This document shows, one piece after another, positions 3,354 to 23,940 of a DNA stretch of 64,000 nt. Below the pieces are notes generated by a model. That model searched no databases. It worked only from the letters and a program-made list of their open reading frames with translations, and had not been told where the DNA came from. Positions within the stretch are counted from its first letter, which is position 1. Each line of letters begins with the position of its first letter. The position numbers were made by a program, and so were the translations under genes. Source of the stretch: Deltaproteobacteria bacterium (lineage in GTDB: Bacteria > Myxococcota_A > Polyangia > Fen-1088); the NCBI GenBank assembly GCA_033763315.1, contig JANRKS010000006.1, forward strand, positions 160,001 through 224,000, read 5' to 3'.

Positions 3354-3393
3354 GCGTCGAAGAATGTAGGGGGCGGGGCAGGGGTGCGCAAAA

Positions 3394-4569
3394 TCATTTG
3401 CGACGGCGGCCCGCCGGCGCCACGTCCGCCGTGACGAGCAGATCGGGCCCAAGCGGCGTGAATTGCAGGTTAGACAACGGCAGCAGCGCGTCCGTGCCCA
3501 GCCCGCGCCCCGTAACCACCGGTACGCCGCCGCCCGCGAGTTTCGGCGCAAAAAACGCGGCCACCCGGTCCACAAGGCCAGCCGCAACAAAAGCGGCGTG
3601 AACGTGGCTGCCGCCTTCGACCAACAGAGATTGCACCCCGCGCTTGGCCAACACGCGCACTGCGGGGCCCAGGGCCACGCCGTGCGTTCCTGGGGGCACC
3701 AAGGCAACCTCCGCACCGGCGGCTTCCAGCGCCCGCCGACGACGTGCGAACGCCGCTCGCGCGGCCTTTTCAGGCTCGGCAGCCAGCAACAACGGGGGCG
3801 GCACTCCCTCAGCCTTGGCCAGCAGCCGTGCCGAAGGAGGCGTGCGCAAGTGCGTGTCCAGCACCACGCGCAAGATGGCGTGGCTACCTCCGGGGGGCAG
3901 CCGTTTTGCGCGCACAGTGAGTTGGGGATCGTCAGCCAGAACCGTGCCGTGCCCCACCAAAATGGCGTGGTGTTGCGCGCGCAGGCCGTGTGCGTACGCC
4001 AGGGCCGCTTTGCTGGTGATGGCGAGCGGCGCGCGTCCCTTGCCTACCTCGGCGTTTTCCTGACCGATGACACCATCCAACGTGGCCGCGTATTTCAGCG
4101 TCACCAACGGCCGTTGGTGCTCTATCCAGCAGAAAAACGCCCGGTTGATCGCTGTGCATTCGTCCTGCAGGCACCCAACGTCAACGCGGATGCCGGCCCG
4201 GCGCAAGCGTGCGATGCCGGCGCCATTCACAACAGGGTTGGCGTCGCGGCAGCCCACCACCACCCGCGCCACTTTGGCCGCAATCACCGCGTCGGTACAG
4301 GGACCGGTGCGGCCCGTATGGCAGCAAGGTTCCAGCGTCACGTATAAAGTTGACCCTTGCGCCGCGCTGCCCGCAGCACGCAGTGCCTCCGCTTCAGCGT
4401 GTGGTTTGCCGGCCCTGCGGTGATACCCGGTGGCCACCACGCGCGTGCCCTTGACCACCACGGCCCCCACCGCAGGGTTGGGCGTTGTGCGACCTAGCGC
4501 CTTGCTTGCGTGCAGCAAGGCCAGCTGCATGAAGCGCTCGTCTTTGTTGGGGGTAAGGCGCGTCGGCAT
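3394..4569 (-). CDS. ribD: Bifunctional deaminase/reductase RibD
   Basis: PNPAVGAVVV, HAE, LYVTLEPCCH...PC, ADDPQLTVR, LLVEGG. Confidence 0.96.
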   Translation of the reverse strand: MPTRLTPNKDERFMQLALLHASKALGRTTPNPAVGAVVVKGTRVVATGYHRRAGKPHAEAEALRAAGSAAQGSTLYVTLEPCCHTGRTGPCTDAVIAAKVARVVVGCRDANPVVNGAGIARLRRAGIRVDVGCLQDECTAINRAFFCWIEHQRPLVTLKYAATLDGVIGQENAEVGKGRAPLAITSKAALAYAHGLRAQHHAILVGHGTVLADDPQLTVRAKRLPPGGSHAILRVVLDTHLRTPPSARLLAKAEGVPPPLLLAAEPEKAARAAFARRRRALEAAGAEVALVPPGTHGVALGPAVRVLAKRGVQSLLVEGGSHVHAAFVAAGLVDRVAAFFAPKLAGGGVPVVTGRGLGTDALLPLSNLQFTPLGPDLLVTADVAPAGRRRK

Positions 4570-8305: not shown

Positions 8306-8926
8306 ATGACCGACGAGGCCCTCATGCAAGCGTTCCAGATGGGCGACGCCAAAGCTTTTGCCACGTTGGTGCAACGGCACGAGACGAAGCTGTGGAATTT
8401 CTTGCGCCGTTATGTGGGCGATGCCGCCACCGCCGAAGATTTGCTTCAGGATGTTTTCATGCGCGTGTTGGCTCATGCAGCCGAATGGACGCCTGCCGCG
8501 AAAGTGACGACGTGGATGTACACCATCGCTCGCAACCTCTGCACCGATCATGCCCGCCGCGCCGTCCATCGCCACGCGGTTTCGCTGGATGGCGCGCCCA
8601 CCGCACGCATGACACAAGAGGATTCGGGTCCGGTTTTGGTTGAACGCTTGGCGGGGCCCGATCTTGGAGGCGAACACAACGTGTCCACCGCCCAGATGGT
8701 CAAAGAGCTGGATGTTGCGTTGGCCGCGTTGCCAGAGGAGCAGCGCGAAGTTTTCTTGATGCGTGAAGTGATGGATCTATCGTTCGCTGAAATTGCCGAA
8801 GCGGTGGGCGCTTCGGTACCCACTGTGAAAAGTCGTATGCGCTACGCACTTGAACGGTTGCGCGAAGCTTTGGTCGCCTTTCGCGAATCAGGCACACACA
8901 GCGCGGTTGTGCAGGTGCAGCCATGA
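8306..8926 (+). CDS. ECF RNA polymerase sigma factor
   Basis: AEDLLQDVF, WMYTIARNLCTD (region 2); LPEEQREVFLMRE..LSFAEIAE..G....TVKSRMRYA (region 4). Confidence 0.95.
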   Translation: MTDEALMQAFQMGDAKAFATLVQRHETKLWNFLRRYVGDAATAEDLLQDVFMRVLAHAAEWTPAAKVTTWMYTIARNLCTDHARRAVHRHAVSLDGAPTARMTQEDSGPVLVERLAGPDLGGEHNVSTAQMVKELDVALAALPEEQREVFLMREVMDLSFAEIAEAVGASVPTVKSRMRYALERLREALVAFRESGTHSAVVQVQP

Positions 8927-10143
8927 CGCGCATGCCGTTGACGGAAGAGAGTTTCCGCGATCAAGCGATCGATTACCTGGATAACCTGCTGAGCGAAGAA
9001 GATCGCGCGGCCTTTGAGGAGGCGTGTCGAAAGAATCCTGTATGGGCCACGTACGTTTCCGAACTTGGCACCACATGGCGGCGTGCGGGGCGCTTGTTGC
9101 AACAGGCACAGGAAGCAGCGCCTGCGCGCGTGATGGCGCACGTTATGGCGGAGGCTGAAAAACGCGCCGCAGTGCTGGCCGCCACCACGGTGCCAACGAT
9201 GCCCGCCGTGCAAGCGGCGCGGCCCGCGCGCGATCTGTGGTCAGTGGTGAAAGGCTGGTTCGCTCGGCCTTGGCTGGCACCTGTCTTGGTGGCCACGGCC
9301 GCGGTTGGGTTCTATGTGTTTTCGCAGGAAAGCTGGAAGTCGGCCCGTCCGCAATCAATGGCCCTGGATCCTGTGCAGCAGGAGGTGGCAAAAGAAGAAT
9401 CCGTTGATCCGCAGGTGGGGCCTGGGGCGGCGAGGTCGTCTATGAATCCGAAGGAAGCGCTTGCCGAGCGAAAGGCAGACGCTGTTGTTGAACGAAGATC
9501 GCACGCGCGTGGCGGCGTGCCCGCCAAAGCCGCTGACAGGCGGGCCATGAAACCAGCCGCCCGCAAAGCCAAGACGCAAGAGCGGGACGACGACACGCTT
9601 GGCGGTCTCCTTGACGAAGGGCCTGCCGCAGGTTGGGGATCTGGCAAAGGCGAGGGTTATGCAGCGCCACCCTCGGGCTGGCGTGGGTCTGCAGAAAAGA
9701 AGGTGGCTGCGGATGGCGTGAACCAGATGCCAGCACCGCGGCCGGAGCCGACGGCCGAGGCACCCAAACGCGTGCCGGCGCCGTCAAGCGGCGGCAGCGC
9801 CGGCGCGCGCGCGCCTTCTCTCTCCGCTGCGCCACCGCCCTTGGCCGCTGCACCACCCCCCGCCGCCGCTCCGGCGCCCCCCGCCGCCGCACCGGCCTCG
9901 CCCGCGCAAGGGTTCATGCGAAACAGCGAAGCGGAGGAAGCGGCGCCCTCAGACGCCGAGAATGCGAAGGCGCCCGCGTTGTCGCGTGCCGATCTGCTGC
10001 AAAAAGCGGCCTTTGCCGAAACGAATGGCGACTGGCAGAGCGCGGTGCAAACCTACCGCGAACTGCTGCGGCGTTTTCCTCACGATAAAGACGCCGCTCG
10101 CTGGAAACAACGCCTGGTCACGGCCAGCTCACACCTGCGCTAA
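8923..10143 (+). CDS. Membrane anti-sigma factor with Pro/Ala-rich linker and C-terminal TPR-like helices
   Basis: ATGA overlap with the sigma gene. N-terminal DYLDNLLSEEDRAAFEE is ASD/zf-HC2-like but lacks HxxxCxxC. One TM segment; C-terminal GDWQSAVQTYRELLRRFP. Confidence 0.8.
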   Translation: MTRMPLTEESFRDQAIDYLDNLLSEEDRAAFEEACRKNPVWATYVSELGTTWRRAGRLLQQAQEAAPARVMAHVMAEAEKRAAVLAATTVPTMPAVQAARPARDLWSVVKGWFARPWLAPVLVATAAVGFYVFSQESWKSARPQSMALDPVQQEVAKEESVDPQVGPGAARSSMNPKEALAERKADAVVERRSHARGGVPAKAADRRAMKPAARKAKTQERDDDTLGGLLDEGPAAGWGSGKGEGYAAPPSGWRGSAEKKVAADGVNQMPAPRPEPTAEAPKRVPAPSSGGSAGARAPSLSAAPPPLAAAPPPAAAPAPPAAAPASPAQGFMRNSEAEEAAPSDAENAKAPALSRADLLQKAAFAETNGDWQSAVQTYRELLRRFPHDKDAARWKQRLVTASSHLR

Positions 10144-20802: not shown

Positions 20803-20861
20803 GAGGTCCTTTTGCTATCACAAAACCCGGCGGGCCCCATAGCGGCTGAAAGCAGCTTGTG

Positions 20862-20943
20862 TGCGAGGAGAGGGACTCGAACCCTCACGTCTTTCAACAC
20901 TGGAACCTAAATCCAGCGCGTATACCAATTTCGCCATCCTCGC
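20862..20943 (-). tRNA. tRNA-Leu (anticodon TAG), CCA not encoded
   Basis: GCGAGGATGGCGAAATTGGTATACGCGCTGGATTTAGGTTCCAGTGTTGAAAGACGTGAGGGTTCGAGTCCCTCTCCTCGCA: 7-bp acceptor stem, CTGGA/TCCAG anticodon stem, long variable arm, GTTCGA T-loop. Confidence 0.96.
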
Positions 20944-21289: not shown

Positions 21290-21400
21290 CGCCTCCGTTT
21301 TGGCCGGGTTAACGATAACCGTGCTGTGGCGTAACTTCTTGCGGTCAAAAGGCGTGCCTTCGGGTAGATTCTGGGTAATTCGACTCACCTTGGGTTACGG

Positions 21401-22207
21401 GTGTCACCGAAACGGCTAACGCAGGGAACGCGCTTCCCACTTTTCGTTCGTACGGGGTTCTTCTTAAGGGGAGCCTTTACCGTGCAGATGGCGTGCGCAA
21501 TTCTTTCGACAGCCTCAAGCCTGGCCGGATGCGGCGACGGACTTTTCGAGCCCGCGGCCGCCAGCCGTCCCGACAGCGCGGCCCCCGCTGACGGGGATCA
21601 ATTCGTTATGACGGGCGGCAGGGACGGCCGGGACGCTGCCGCAGACGCACAACCTTCAACGGTGACCGCTGAGATTGGGTTCAAGGCCACGTCAGTGGCT
21701 CTTGGCCCCGCGGCCGTAAACTTTGTGGACGGGACGTACAAGGACAAGACGAACGTCACACTCGAGTGGCTCGAAGTGGCGGATGTGAAGGTAAGAGGCC
21801 CTTACGGCCGCATCCTTCGCGTCACTTTCGACGCCGTTCCACAGCCCAAACCTTCGGTCAGCATCGACGTAGGCGCGCTCGTACAGACCTCCGGGTCGGA
21901 GCCAAACCTTCGTGCGATCGCGAACGCCTTGGTCATCGCGAGGCTGCAGGACCAAGATCCAAAGCAATGGATTAAGTTGTCCAAGCAACTGCCCGCGGAA
22001 GACGATGGCCTCAGCGTGAGAATCGTCGCTCTGGATTATCCGCTCGCAACGACGTCGACCGGCAAATGGACCGTATCATTTGCGATCCTATTGAACTGCG
22101 ATGCACCGGATGCGGCTTGCTCGCAGTCTGACCTGATGTCGTGCGAGAAGCGGTGTTCCGCCGAACGGCCTGGGTACAACTGCTCGATGAGTAGGCTTTG
22201 CCAATGA
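21401..22207 (+). CDS. Putative lipoprotein with Cys-rich C-terminus
   Basis: Lipobox LAG|C; beta-rich middle; 7 Cys in the last ~36 aa; stop overlaps the next ATG. Start uncertain (21401, 21482 or 21488). Confidence 0.7.
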   Translation: MSPKRLTQGTRFPLFVRTGFFLRGAFTVQMACAILSTASSLAGCGDGLFEPAAASRPDSAAPADGDQFVMTGGRDGRDAAADAQPSTVTAEIGFKATSVALGPAAVNFVDGTYKDKTNVTLEWLEVADVKVRGPYGRILRVTFDAVPQPKPSVSIDVGALVQTSGSEPNLRAIANALVIARLQDQDPKQWIKLSKQLPAEDDGLSVRIVALDYPLATTSTGKWTVSFAILLNCDAPDAACSQSDLMSCEKRCSAERPGYNCSMSRLCQ

Positions 22208-23793
22208 AGTGCCGCGCGCTCGTCATTGCCGCCTCTCTCTCGCTGACCTTCCTCCTGCCGCTAGGTGCCCACGCCCAATCCTCAGAGGAAGTCCGCTTCG
22301 CGTTGGTGGTGGGCAACAACAAGGGTGATGCGCCCGAGCGGTCGCTGCAATACGCAGAAGAAGAGGTGAGCCGCCTCGCCTCTGTGCTGCAAGCCCAAGG
22401 TGGCTTCGCGCACGTGCAGCTGGTGCAAGGCCACGATCGGGCCACATTGGAAGGCGAACTTCGCAACATGCGCACGCGCATAGAGGCCGCACGCGCCGCC
22501 GGGCAACGGACGCTGTTCATGTTCTACTACTCAGGCCACGGCACCAAGGATGGCCTTGAGCTTGGCGACACGATGTTGCCGATGCGCGATCTGCGGCAAT
22601 ATCTGGAATCGCTGCAGGCTGACGTTCGCTTGGCCTTCGTTGATGCCTGTCAATCAGGCGCGCTCACCGGCGTCAAAGGTGGCCGCCGCGCGCCGGCTTA
22701 TGAGATTCGCTTGGCCGACGCCGGTGCTGTCAGCGGTTTGGCCATTGTGACTTCGTCCACCGCGAATGAGCTTTCTCAAGAATCCGATGAGCTCCGTGGT
22801 TCGTTCTTCAGCCACAACATCATGGCCGGCCTCCGCGGTCTGGCCGACTCATCAGGCGACGGCCAGATCAGCCTCAGCGAGCTTTACGATTACACCTTCA
22901 AGCGCACCCTTGCGTTTACCGCCGCCAGCTTGGTGGGCAGCCAACATCCCACGCGCGATCTGCGTTTGTCGGGTGCCGGCGACGTGATCTTGGCGCGCAT
23001 CCGCCCCGGTGACGCGCGGCTCATCTTCCCCAAAGAGCGCTCAGCCACCTACGCCGTGATCAACAACGGGCAGGTTATGGCGGAGATCAACACCAGCCCA
23101 CGCGATTCGTATTACCTTGGTGTGCCCGCGGGCCAATACCGCGTCGTGCGCCGTACGCTTGATGGTGTCAGCGAACGAACGTATGCGTTGGCGGCGGGCA
23201 GCCATTCCGCCATCGAGCCCGAAGGCATGAACCCCGTGCTGGCGCAGGCGTTTCAGCGCAAGAAGGGTGGCGACTTGGATGTGATCGCGGGCGCGTGGCT
23301 GCGCAACGAAGTGAGCGCGTACGTGTCTGGTTACTCGCCTCACGTGGATGGCACAAGCTCCGTTATTCCCTCCGTGGGTGTGGGCTATGCCTTTGACCTG
23401 GGGCGCCTCGCGCTTGAAGCCCGCGTCGACCTGTCGTCATTCACAAATACCTCAATCAACACCCCTGCGGCCGAATCGGAGCATTTGCGTGCGGTGCCCA
23501 TGATGAACGCGCTGTGGAATCTGTGGCGCGCCCGGCACGTGGCTTTGCGTGTGGGCCCAAGCGTTGGCATGTCCGTTGAACGGCAGACCCAAGACACGCG
23601 CGCCAGCCAATCATTTGGCTTCATCTACGGAGGCCTAATAGACGCGGCAATTCCGTTGGCCCCGCGGTTTGCAATTGCGGTCACGGGGTTCGGCGGCGGG
23701 GAAACTTATAAATACCAGAACGACACGGGTGACGCCGATTTGAAGACCGTGCTCCGCGTTGGGGTCTCTTTAGGCGGACGACTAGCCTTTTAG
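22204..23793 (+). CDS. Exported caspase-like (peptidase C14) protease with C-terminal beta-barrel
   Basis: Signal peptide ...AHA; RFALVVGNN, LQYAE, FYYSGHG (His), FVDACQSG (Cys), SQESDEL.GSFFSH...GLRG.AD, QHP; amphipathic C-terminal strands ending GRLAF. Confidence 0.88.
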   Translation: MKCRALVIAASLSLTFLLPLGAHAQSSEEVRFALVVGNNKGDAPERSLQYAEEEVSRLASVLQAQGGFAHVQLVQGHDRATLEGELRNMRTRIEAARAAGQRTLFMFYYSGHGTKDGLELGDTMLPMRDLRQYLESLQADVRLAFVDACQSGALTGVKGGRRAPAYEIRLADAGAVSGLAIVTSSTANELSQESDELRGSFFSHNIMAGLRGLADSSGDGQISLSELYDYTFKRTLAFTAASLVGSQHPTRDLRLSGAGDVILARIRPGDARLIFPKERSATYAVINNGQVMAEINTSPRDSYYLGVPAGQYRVVRRTLDGVSERTYALAAGSHSAIEPEGMNPVLAQAFQRKKGGDLDVIAGAWLRNEVSAYVSGYSPHVDGTSSVIPSVGVGYAFDLGRLALEARVDLSSFTNTSINTPAAESEHLRAVPMMNALWNLWRARHVALRVGPSVGMSVERQTQDTRASQSFGFIYGGLIDAAIPLAPRFAIAVTGFGGGETYKYQNDTGDADLKTVLRVGVSLGGRLAF

Positions 23794-23823: not shown

Positions 23824-23940
23824 ATATTGTAAAATGCGTGGATTGTCCGCGCTCGGGCCGCGGTTTTGGTTATAACAAACGAGCCTTTGCCTCTTTCACA
23901 GGGGCGCTCGTCTCTCCAGTTTGTTCAGGGAGTAGTAACC

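Follow-up and report, generated by a model that had tools for sequence, protein, structure and literature searches.

Caspase homologues are abundant in myxobacteria, and to our knowledge no sigma-linked one has a tested function. In the DegS-RseA-RseB-RseP pathway, a single-pass anti-sigma factor is cut by a site-1 protease located in the periplasm, and outer-membrane lipoproteins such as RcsF serve as sensors. We analyzed a coupled gene pair in a 64,000-nucleotide stretch of DNA (the window) from Deltaproteobacteria bacterium (GTDB class Polyangia; assembly GCA_033763315.1, contig JANRKS010000006.1, positions 160,001 to 224,000 of the forward strand). Gene 1 encodes a lipoprotein with a core predicted to be ZU5-like, and gene 2 encodes a C14 caspase-like protease with a predicted outer-membrane barrel at its C-terminus. 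The arrangement that we propose is like the DegS pathway and RcsF in that a site-1 protease would act on a single-pass anti-sigma factor, together with an accessory periplasmic or lipoprotein regulator. Unlike the cysteine caspase fold encoded here, however, DegS is a serine protease that bears a PDZ domain and is not tethered to the outer membrane, and the two systems have unrelated accessory proteins.

Operons composed of a sigma-70-family gene and a metacaspase gene have been reported from Myxococcus xanthus DK 1622 and other Deltaproteobacteria, and the available part of that report contains no functional test (Asplund-Samuelsson et al. 2012, PMC3501461). The system described here is similar in that a C14 caspase homologue is encoded with a sigma gene in myxobacteria, in a cassette of extracytoplasmic function (ECF) sigma, anti-sigma and caspase-barrel genes, and the window caspase is orthologous to the caspases of this cassette. 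It differs in that the sigma and anti-sigma genes are unlinked from the window pair and a gene for a ZU5-like lipoprotein is coupled to the caspase gene instead. An outer-membrane barrel, a DUF4384-like anti-sigma domain and a lipoprotein partner are not described for those operons in the available part of the report.

Two further systems combine a caspase-family protease with control of a sigma factor. In M. xanthus, the periplasmic CHAT domain of the anti-sigma factor DdvA has been proposed to be a site-1 protease (PMC11506125, available part). Like DdvA-DdvS, the cassette pairs an ECF sigma factor with a transmembrane anti-sigma factor of the zinc type that would hold it, and release is proposed to begin with a periplasmic caspase-family protease, followed by RseP. 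In DdvA a TPR-CHAT module is fused to the anti-sigma factor, whereas the protease of the cassette is a separate, barrel-tethered C14 protein, unlinked from the sigma and anti-sigma genes in the window. In the Type III-E craspase, the caspase-like Csx29 (TPR-CHAT) cleaves Csx30 in its complex with the sigma factor RpoE, and in some Csx30 proteins the C-terminal domain belongs to DUF4384 (10.1101/2022.08.17.504292, available part). The likeness lies in a caspase-family protease acting on a sigma-binding inhibitor, as we propose for the cassette, and in DUF4384, to which the cassette anti-sigma factors have a weak match; unlike the cassette, craspase is cytoplasmic, RNA-guided and CHAT-type, without a membrane barrel or a lipoprotein.

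The sigma/metacaspase operons are already known (PMC3501461, available part); what appears to be new is a sigma-unlinked form coupled to a ZU5-like lipoprotein. A literature search limited to sources other than subscription journals and preprint supplements turned up no account of the barrel anchor, of a ZU5-like lipoprotein partner or of the sigma-unlinked form. An earlier note on this DNA had described the coupled pair and taken it for a candidate envelope proteolytic switch. Its observation was confirmed and its interpretation partly supported: the operon most likely derives from an envelope proteolytic signalling cassette by loss of linkage to the sigma gene, and the lipoprotein would be its regulator or sensor. 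The main new result is the conserved gene neighbourhood of this cassette in relatives.

Gene neighbourhood of the caspase-barrel gene

Orthologues of gene 2 were located at 27 places in 25 of 61 genomes of the same family, with 48-55% identity outside the genus, and the DNA upstream of all 27 places was read. An anti-sigma gene lay directly upstream of the caspase-barrel gene in 24 of them. In these 24 places the anti-sigma gene was itself preceded, wherever the contig extended far enough, by an ECF sigma gene (Sigma70_r2/r4). The anti-sigma factors of the cassette are 250-280 amino acids long; the motif H-x3-C-x2-C is invariant in them, and they also have a hydrophobic segment and, at the C-terminus, a domain weakly matching DUF4384; in six aligned orthologues, the cassette-linked proteins end in an invariant LLRRP. 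Profile-profile comparison of the caspase family with the anti-sigma family revealed no relation.

The remaining three places were the window, locus L001 of the congener G002, and an ambiguous one in G009. The last (L032/L085, G009:C82) is the most distant of the orthologous places, at 43% identity, and consists of a single open reading frame (ORF) of 523 amino acids in which a sigma-like N-terminus runs into caspase-barrel sequence. This ORF might reflect a gene fusion, a frameshift or an error of assembly.

Among the 27 places, only the window and G002 lacked the sigma/anti-sigma pair and had a lipoprotein gene directly coupled to the caspase gene. L001, a contig of an uncultured Polyangia bacterium, is the nearest relative of the window locus that carries a name. 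A scan with the caspase alignment identified two metagenome contigs, L087 and L088, with caspases 80% identical to that of the window and with the same direct coupling. In the window, the junction is a four-base ATGA overlap between the TGA of gene 1 (22205-22207) and the ATG of gene 2 (22204), as read in the earlier note, and an overlap of this type was kept in all four readable loci of the clade (window, L001, L087 and L088). The survey upstream of caspase orthologues that the note had suggested therefore showed the pairing to be conserved: beyond these four loci, lipoproteins of the same family were found within the gene cluster of the orthologous caspase in 10 further places.

The window locus is also an exception within its own genome (G000). 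Each of its 10 paralogous caspase genes is closely preceded by a Sigma70_r2 match on the same strand, and the anti-sigma profile matched at 5 of these 10 loci. Over its full length, the window caspase is 48-55% identical to the cassette caspases versus 30-38% to the G000 paralogues; by this comparison, the window gene is orthologous to the caspase genes of the cassette.

The absence of ECF sigma and anti-sigma genes, remarked upon in the earlier note, held for the surroundings of the pair, where none adjoins, but not for the genome. The best match of the anti-sigma profile in the window genome was G000:C24:7607-8422 (E 1.1e-97, with the next at 3.5e-18). The C24 protein is 44% identical to one of the anti-sigma factors linked to caspase orthologues, a value within the range among orthologous anti-sigma factors. 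Its gene has a sigma gene directly upstream and no caspase gene downstream; at this locus (L033, G000:C24:6091-9267), the sigma and anti-sigma genes are followed by a gene for a 456-amino-acid SGL beta-propeller lipoprotein (C24:6091-7461). In the congener G002, the sigma/anti-sigma pair is likewise unlinked from the caspase gene. Because an orthologous sigma/anti-sigma pair persists on another contig of the window genome, we concluded that its absence at the window locus is a secondary loss of linkage in the same kind of system.

The SGL lipoprotein of C24 was considered as a counterpart of the genes downstream of cassette caspases and was rejected as not homologous. At the same locus, the sigma gene is closely preceded by a tRNA-like sequence.

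A word-based search with gene 1 found one relative. An exhaustive profile search found 14 proteins at E up to 0.001, of which two repeat proteins were set aside and 12, including the window's own, were kept (family alignment A5). The members share a lipobox Cys with the motif G-x-G-L-F/Y after it, a disordered linker rich in Pro and Asp, a core rich in beta strands and a tail rich in Cys. The family occurs in 29 of 301 genomes of the class, chiefly in the window's own family (20 of 46 genomes). In 10 of the 24 sigma-linked places, an A5-family lipoprotein gene stands beside the sigma gene, on the same strand in 5 and divergently in 2; the other 3 are on short contigs that break within the sigma or anti-sigma gene.

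The variability ascribed to the lipoprotein in the earlier note was evident in comparisons of the same pairs of loci. Between the window and L001, the lipoproteins are 27% identical versus 83% for the caspases; between the window and L087, the values are 31% and 80%. In a tree of the lipoproteins, the window clade (8 rows) was split from the other 20 rows with support 99/99. The tree leaves out L052 (partial), P0123 (the protein of L035), P0131 and P0132 (the repeat proteins), and P0128-P0130 and P0134 (close to included proteins from loci L036-L038).

Other lipoprotein genes were seen near such cassettes. At the paralogue loci L016, L020, L021 and L023 of G000, sigma/anti-sigma/caspase-barrel modules are followed by an ORF with a lipobox; the A5 profile misses these ORFs, and some of them read C-G-D-G or C-G-D-P at the lipidated Cys, like gene 1. 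Upstream of the cassette in one genus lies the gene for a conserved lipoprotein, about 620-740 amino acids long (L064 80-1963, L065 2629-4500, L071 187-2121 and L082 417-2276). This lipoprotein ends in ...NTTPVWDMI(T/S)IPP...PI(Y/F) and is present with or without a ZU5-type lipoprotein gene.

Predicted architecture of the two proteins

Gene 2 (22204..23793, 529 amino acids; all features are on the forward strand unless stated otherwise) was delimited from its ORF, Pfam, the alignment and the structural model, and comprises a signal peptide, a C14 caspase-like domain, a beta-sandwich and a C-terminal barrel. Pfam Peptidase_C14 (PF00656) covers residues 31-214 (E 2.7e-14; 53.8 bits versus a cut-off of 21.4). 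The NCBIfam model caspase_w_EACC1 scored 66.9 bits, below its cut-off of 140, and the PADLOC caspase model gave a weak match (E 3.6e-5). More than 290 full-length homologues of about 515 amino acids were found, and the named ones are from Polyangia or other Myxococcota. The His/Cys dyad assigned in the earlier note proved invariant in 58 of 58 aligned homologues: His112 (in SGHG) is encoded at 22537-22539 and Cys149 (in DACQSG) at 22648-22650.

Signal peptides and topology were assigned by eye and by general rules. On this basis, the N-terminus of gene 2, MKCRALVIAASLSLTFLLPLGAHA before Q (MKCR...GAHA, then Q), resembles a Sec signal peptide, in agreement with the note.

The AlphaFold2 model of gene 2 (mean predicted local distance difference test score, pLDDT, 81.8) divides the protein into a caspase domain at residues 29-256 (22288..22971), a beta-sandwich at 262-336 (22987..23211), a low-confidence tether at 348-365 and a set of strands at 368-528. 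The extent of the caspase domain was set from Pfam, the invariant columns, AlphaFold2 and Foldseek. In Foldseek searches, this part matched Sf-caspase-1, procaspase-7, MALT1 and Yca1 at E 2e-7 to 7e-7; by sequence, the nearest solved structure was metacaspase-9, at only E 0.009. The small beta domain noticed earlier is modelled as an Ig-like beta-sandwich, with strands at pLDDT 85-94 and long Foldseek alignments to the caspase-Ig3 part of MALT1.

The C-terminal part, described in the earlier note as barrel-like and ending in Phe, is predicted from AlphaFold2 and Foldseek to be an 8-stranded outer-membrane beta-barrel (residues 368-529, 23305..23790). The model has eight long strands, with 10-residue blocks at pLDDT 78-97. 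Foldseek matched them to OmpA (9fzc/9fzd), NspA (1p4t), Ail (3qra) and OmpW (2f1t) with target TM-scores of 0.59-0.71; for gene 2 as a whole, matches to caspases/MALT1 and to 8-stranded barrels had overall E values of 2e-7 to 3e-6. The terminal Phe (F529) is at least 90% conserved in the alignment of 58 homologues. No Pfam or NCBIfam match to a named outer-membrane protein family was obtained for residues 350-529. The C-terminus is, as modelled, barrel-like in structure yet outside any named family of outer-membrane proteins. In an even-stranded outer-membrane barrel, the N and C ends are both on the periplasmic side, and the protease is therefore predicted to be periplasmic.

A conserved basic loop, VKGGRRAP (residues 157-164), follows Cys149 in the inter-subunit region, within a loop of low pLDDT (158-174). 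Caspases are usually processed at this position. The parallel between the basic GGRRAP loop and the LLRRP tail of the anti-sigma factors is suggestive only. From D147-A-C149 and the GGRRAP loop, one may guess by a familiar rule that the predicted protease prefers a basic P1 residue.

Gene 1 (21482..22207) encodes 241 amino acids, as delimited from its ORF and family alignment A5. A signal peptide with the lipobox L-A-G-C is encoded at 21482..21532; Cys17, predicted to be lipidated, is at least 90% conserved among the 12 family members, and the conserved motif G-x-G-L-F/Y comes right after it. The lipobox consensus is [LVI][ASTVI][GAS]C behind a hydrophobic stretch, and the earlier identification of gene 1 as a lipoprotein gene is upheld. 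A linker rich in Pro, Asp and Ala (residues 18-55, 21533..21646) is modelled as disordered (pLDDT <50) and leads to a beta-sandwich core (residues 56-205, 21647..22096) and a Cys-rich tail (residues 206-241, 22097..22204; alignments A1, A5 and A6). The tail has six Cys residues, not seven as counted before; seven are reached only by including the lipidated Cys. Of the six, C206, C213, C234 and C240 are invariant in the family and C221 and C225 are at least 90% conserved; inside the window's lipoprotein clade, all six are invariant.

The earlier note had found the core loosely reminiscent of ZU5 domains, and the predicted fold bears this out. The AlphaFold2 model of gene 1 has a mean pLDDT of 77.8, with the core mostly at 86-96. 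Foldseek placed ankyrin ZU5 (3kbu/3f59) on top (E ~4e-3, probability 1.0), followed by UNC5b and GAIN. VIA-align, which is independent of Foldseek, aligned the model to ankyrin ZU5 with Z 9.4 (root-mean-square deviation 3.6, 127 residues aligned), 9.1 (2.8, 126) and 8.8 (2.9, 118), ahead of CD97 GAIN (8.2), CARD8 FIIND (7.3) and UNC5b (6.6); its stated background is Z 7-8, so that the ZU5 values are moderate evidence. In the ESM Atlas, the clusters nearest gene 1 carry Pfam ZU5 in 51% and 31% of their members. Pfam and NCBIfam gave no match to gene 1, none of the 12 family members had a Pfam match, to ZU5 (PF00791) or otherwise, at E up to 1, and a profile search of the PDB with the family returned nothing relevant. 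The models thus support a ZU5-like core at the level of the fold.

In animals, ZU5 and FIIND proteins act upstream of caspases. Autoproteolytic motifs of the superfamily are HFS, in PIDD-type proteins, and a C-terminal CxH, the latter as given in PMC3482391 (available part). The modelled core of gene 1 shares its beta-sandwich fold with the ZU5 domains of ankyrin, UNC5 and PIDD, the FIIND of NLRP1 and CARD8, and GAIN. Unlike these, gene 1 has no Pfam ZU5 match, no HFS or CxH motif and no UPA or death-fold domain, and it is predicted to be lipid-anchored and periplasmic. As stated in the earlier note, no HFS motif is present in the sequence of gene 1; in the family, the residue two past C206 is never His, and no His or Ser is invariant. 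Autoproteolysis is therefore not proposed for this family. We also considered gene 1 as a remnant of the periplasmic domain of an anti-sigma factor. Profile-profile comparison of the two families found no relation, and gene 1 is therefore not a detectable remnant of this kind.

Start codon, leader and surroundings

In the earlier note, gene 1 began at 21401, where an alternative GTG would give a protein of 268 amino acids. This start is doubtful for three reasons: the G+C content at third codon positions (GC3) is 0.59 in 21401-21481 versus 0.70 in the rest of gene 1, DNA conservation with L087 and L001 extends upstream past any ORF, and an AAGGGGA Shine-Dalgarno-like site lies 10 nt before the GTG at 21482. 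The collection's own gene call likewise starts at GTG 21482 and gives 241 amino acids. The less GC-biased codons attributed to gene 1 turned out to be a marginal difference, with GC3 at 0.70 compared with 0.72 for the caspase gene and 0.72-0.76 for the neighbours.

We regard 21340..21481 as a conserved non-coding leader or regulatory region. Its conservation with L087 is block-wise, and weaker with L001, despite the ~30% identity of the lipoproteins. It contains the palindrome GGGAACGCGCTTCCC at 21424-21438, and a hairpin could form across the Shine-Dalgarno site. To judge from these sequence features, the leader may be a promoter, an operator or a structured leader. Neither an Rfam match nor covariation was found in it. 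A candidate ECF-type promoter before gene 1, GGAAC...CGT, was rejected: its spacer is 19 nt long, and L087 does not share its -10 element.

Upstream, the locus is bounded by a tRNA-Leu gene (anticodon tag; 20861..20943, reverse strand; ARAGORN), the position of which is kept in L001. The two loci share the order DapL-like, DUF1015, tRNA, lipoprotein, caspase. About 450-540 bp between the tRNA and gene 1 are without a convincing ORF; in L001, an additional ORF of about 142 amino acids (3384-3809) lies between the tRNA-Leu and lipoprotein genes, with no Pfam match and no counterpart in the window. The G+C content of the gene pair region is about 60%, similar to that of the flanks. A genomic-island reading was rejected, since the pair lies 5' of the tRNA-Leu gene and the stretch between them contains no ORF large enough for an integrase; no search for repeats was made. 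The neighbours of the pair are aminotransferase, DUF1015, tRNA and DUF1552 genes, the last being next downstream (Pfam), and no defence genes are among the immediate neighbours.

A terminator-like hairpin (23847-23863) followed by TTTTGGTTAT (together 23847..23873) lies 54 nt past the stop codon of gene 2. It came from a consensus scan in which 6 such sites were observed versus 3.8 expected in shuffled sequence, and a single site is weak by itself.

No Sigma70_r2 match adjoins the pair; the nearest in the window is at 8366-8563, ~13 kb upstream. It belongs to an ECF-type sigma gene that overlaps a downstream 406-amino-acid ORF, in what looks like a separate sigma/anti-sigma-like pair (8306-10143). 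This sigma gene is not an orthologue of the cassette sigma gene.

Possible function of the gene pair

As a derivative of the cassette, the pair, a two-gene operon of an uncultured myxobacterium of the Polyangia, might work as follows. Gene 2 would be exported by Sec and its C-terminal 8-stranded barrel inserted in the outer membrane, with the caspase and Ig-like domains suspended in the periplasm by a flexible tether of ~20 residues. Gene 1 would provide a lipoprotein whose disordered linker leads to a ZU5-like beta-sandwich and a tail rich in disulfides. The common cassette from which the pair would derive has the order (ZU5-type lipoprotein) - ECF sigma - zinc-type transmembrane anti-sigma - caspase-barrel, where the DUF4384-like domain of the anti-sigma factor would be periplasmic; in the window's genus, the sigma/anti-sigma pair would have been relocated in the genome, leaving the lipoprotein and caspase genes translationally coupled. 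The tethered caspase would be a regulated periplasmic site-1 protease that cuts the periplasmic part of the anti-sigma factor, here in trans, and intramembrane proteolysis would then free the sigma factor. The fast-evolving lipoprotein, retained beside the caspase, would be the input or regulatory subunit that gates it. The precedents of Csx29/Csx30 (10.1101/2022.08.17.504292) and DdvA (PMC11506125), so far as described in the available parts of these papers, make such a relay plausible.

The structural parts of this model are far more certain than the functional parts. Taken whole, as an outer-membrane-tethered caspase that acts as a site-1 protease on the unlinked anti-sigma factor and is gated by the lipoprotein, we hold it tentatively, with slightly less than even confidence. 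The earlier note had left the choice among signalling, kin or prey interaction and defence; because the loss of linkage is secondary, signalling is favoured over the kin, prey and defence readings.

Several observations weigh against the model. No A5-family gene was found within ~2.3 kb in 11 of the 24 sigma-linked places (3 of the 24 were not assessable), and at 11 other loci a member of this family has no sigma or caspase gene within 1.5 kb. The C24 anti-sigma factor ends in LLARP, in place of the LLRRP of the six aligned orthologues and of G002; this could reflect relaxed coupling in the window genome, though G002 keeps LLRRP. No promoter motif common to the operon and the unlinked sigma factor was established. 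A basic n-region of the gene 1 signal peptide is absent when translation starts at GTG 21482 and present from GTG 21401. Both the cut of the anti-sigma factor by the caspase and the contact between the caspase and the lipoprotein are inferred. When residues 26-350 of gene 2 (caspase and Ig-like domains) and residues 18-241 of gene 1 (the mature lipoprotein) were submitted to complex prediction, the score was 0.00 against a mark of 0.32, which speaks neither for nor against binding.

The same pairing might instead be that of a protease and its inhibitor, with the lipoprotein as a periplasmic inhibitor or chaperone that silences the tethered caspase. Translational coupling would then match the amounts of the two proteins, and fast evolution would track the protease surface or escape competitors. 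The ATGA coupling in all four clade loci and the much faster evolution of the upstream gene are consistent with this, and a disulfide-rich tail would be typical of stable periplasmic binders. However, the caspase surface is 80-86% conserved while the lipoproteins are ~30% identical, which would be odd for a tight and specific inhibitor, and 11 cassettes and all 10 G000 paralogues do without an A5-type lipoprotein gene. We consider an inhibitor unlikely.

Alternatively, the lipoprotein could be a substrate or pro-peptide that the caspase cuts in the linker or before the Cys-rich tail, so as to free a peptide or domain with a signalling or antagonistic role. Its linker has considerable length and is modelled as disordered, the six-Cys terminal module is compact and conserved, and ZU5-superfamily domains frequently adjoin processing sites (PMC3482391, available part). 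Yet the linkers of the family share no conserved candidate cleavage motif, basic or otherwise, neither HFS nor CxH is present, and the lipoprotein has a lipid anchor and no evident export route. These points make the substrate role quite unlikely.

In a defence or programmed-death role, the caspase would degrade envelope proteins upon phage attack or kin conflict, and the lipoprotein would be a receptor or decoy in an arms race. Rapid divergence of the lipoprotein and the PADLOC and NCBIfam caspase matches point in this direction, as does the control of a defence island by DdvA-DdvS (PMC11506125, available part). Those two matches are weak or sub-threshold, however, no defence genes adjoin the pair, and the enzyme is predicted to be periplasmic and tethered rather than cytoplasmic. 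We consider this role very unlikely. Mere adjacency, in which the lipoprotein gene was simply left beside the caspase gene once the intervening sigma/anti-sigma pair was lost, would suit a family that is also found away from caspase genes and is patchily associated with the cassette, but is highly improbable given that loci with lipoproteins ~30% identical still share the four-base overlap and the conserved leader and that the lipoprotein reading frame and its six tail Cys residues are maintained.

The model of a lipoprotein-gated caspase has a more specific variant, in which the lipoprotein is a periplasmic 'tripwire': its damage, binding or degradation by a phage, predator, prey or kin factor would unleash the caspase, which would then cut the unlinked anti-sigma factor in trans. 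We give this variant little probability.

The window locus shows what remains linked once the cassette has come apart. The lipoprotein stays with the protease apart from the sigma switch and is therefore nominated as a genuine partner of the protease. The pair offers a compact two-gene system for asking whether a caspase tethered to the outer membrane serves as site-1 protease across the periplasm. The occurrence of a ZU5-like fold together with a caspase in a bacterium bears on the origin of animal cell-death signalling modules. Were the tripwire to prove true, the pair would be a bacterial envelope counterpart of the ZU5/FIIND/PIDD-to-caspase logic of animals, and the partnership of ZU5 and caspase would be older than animals.

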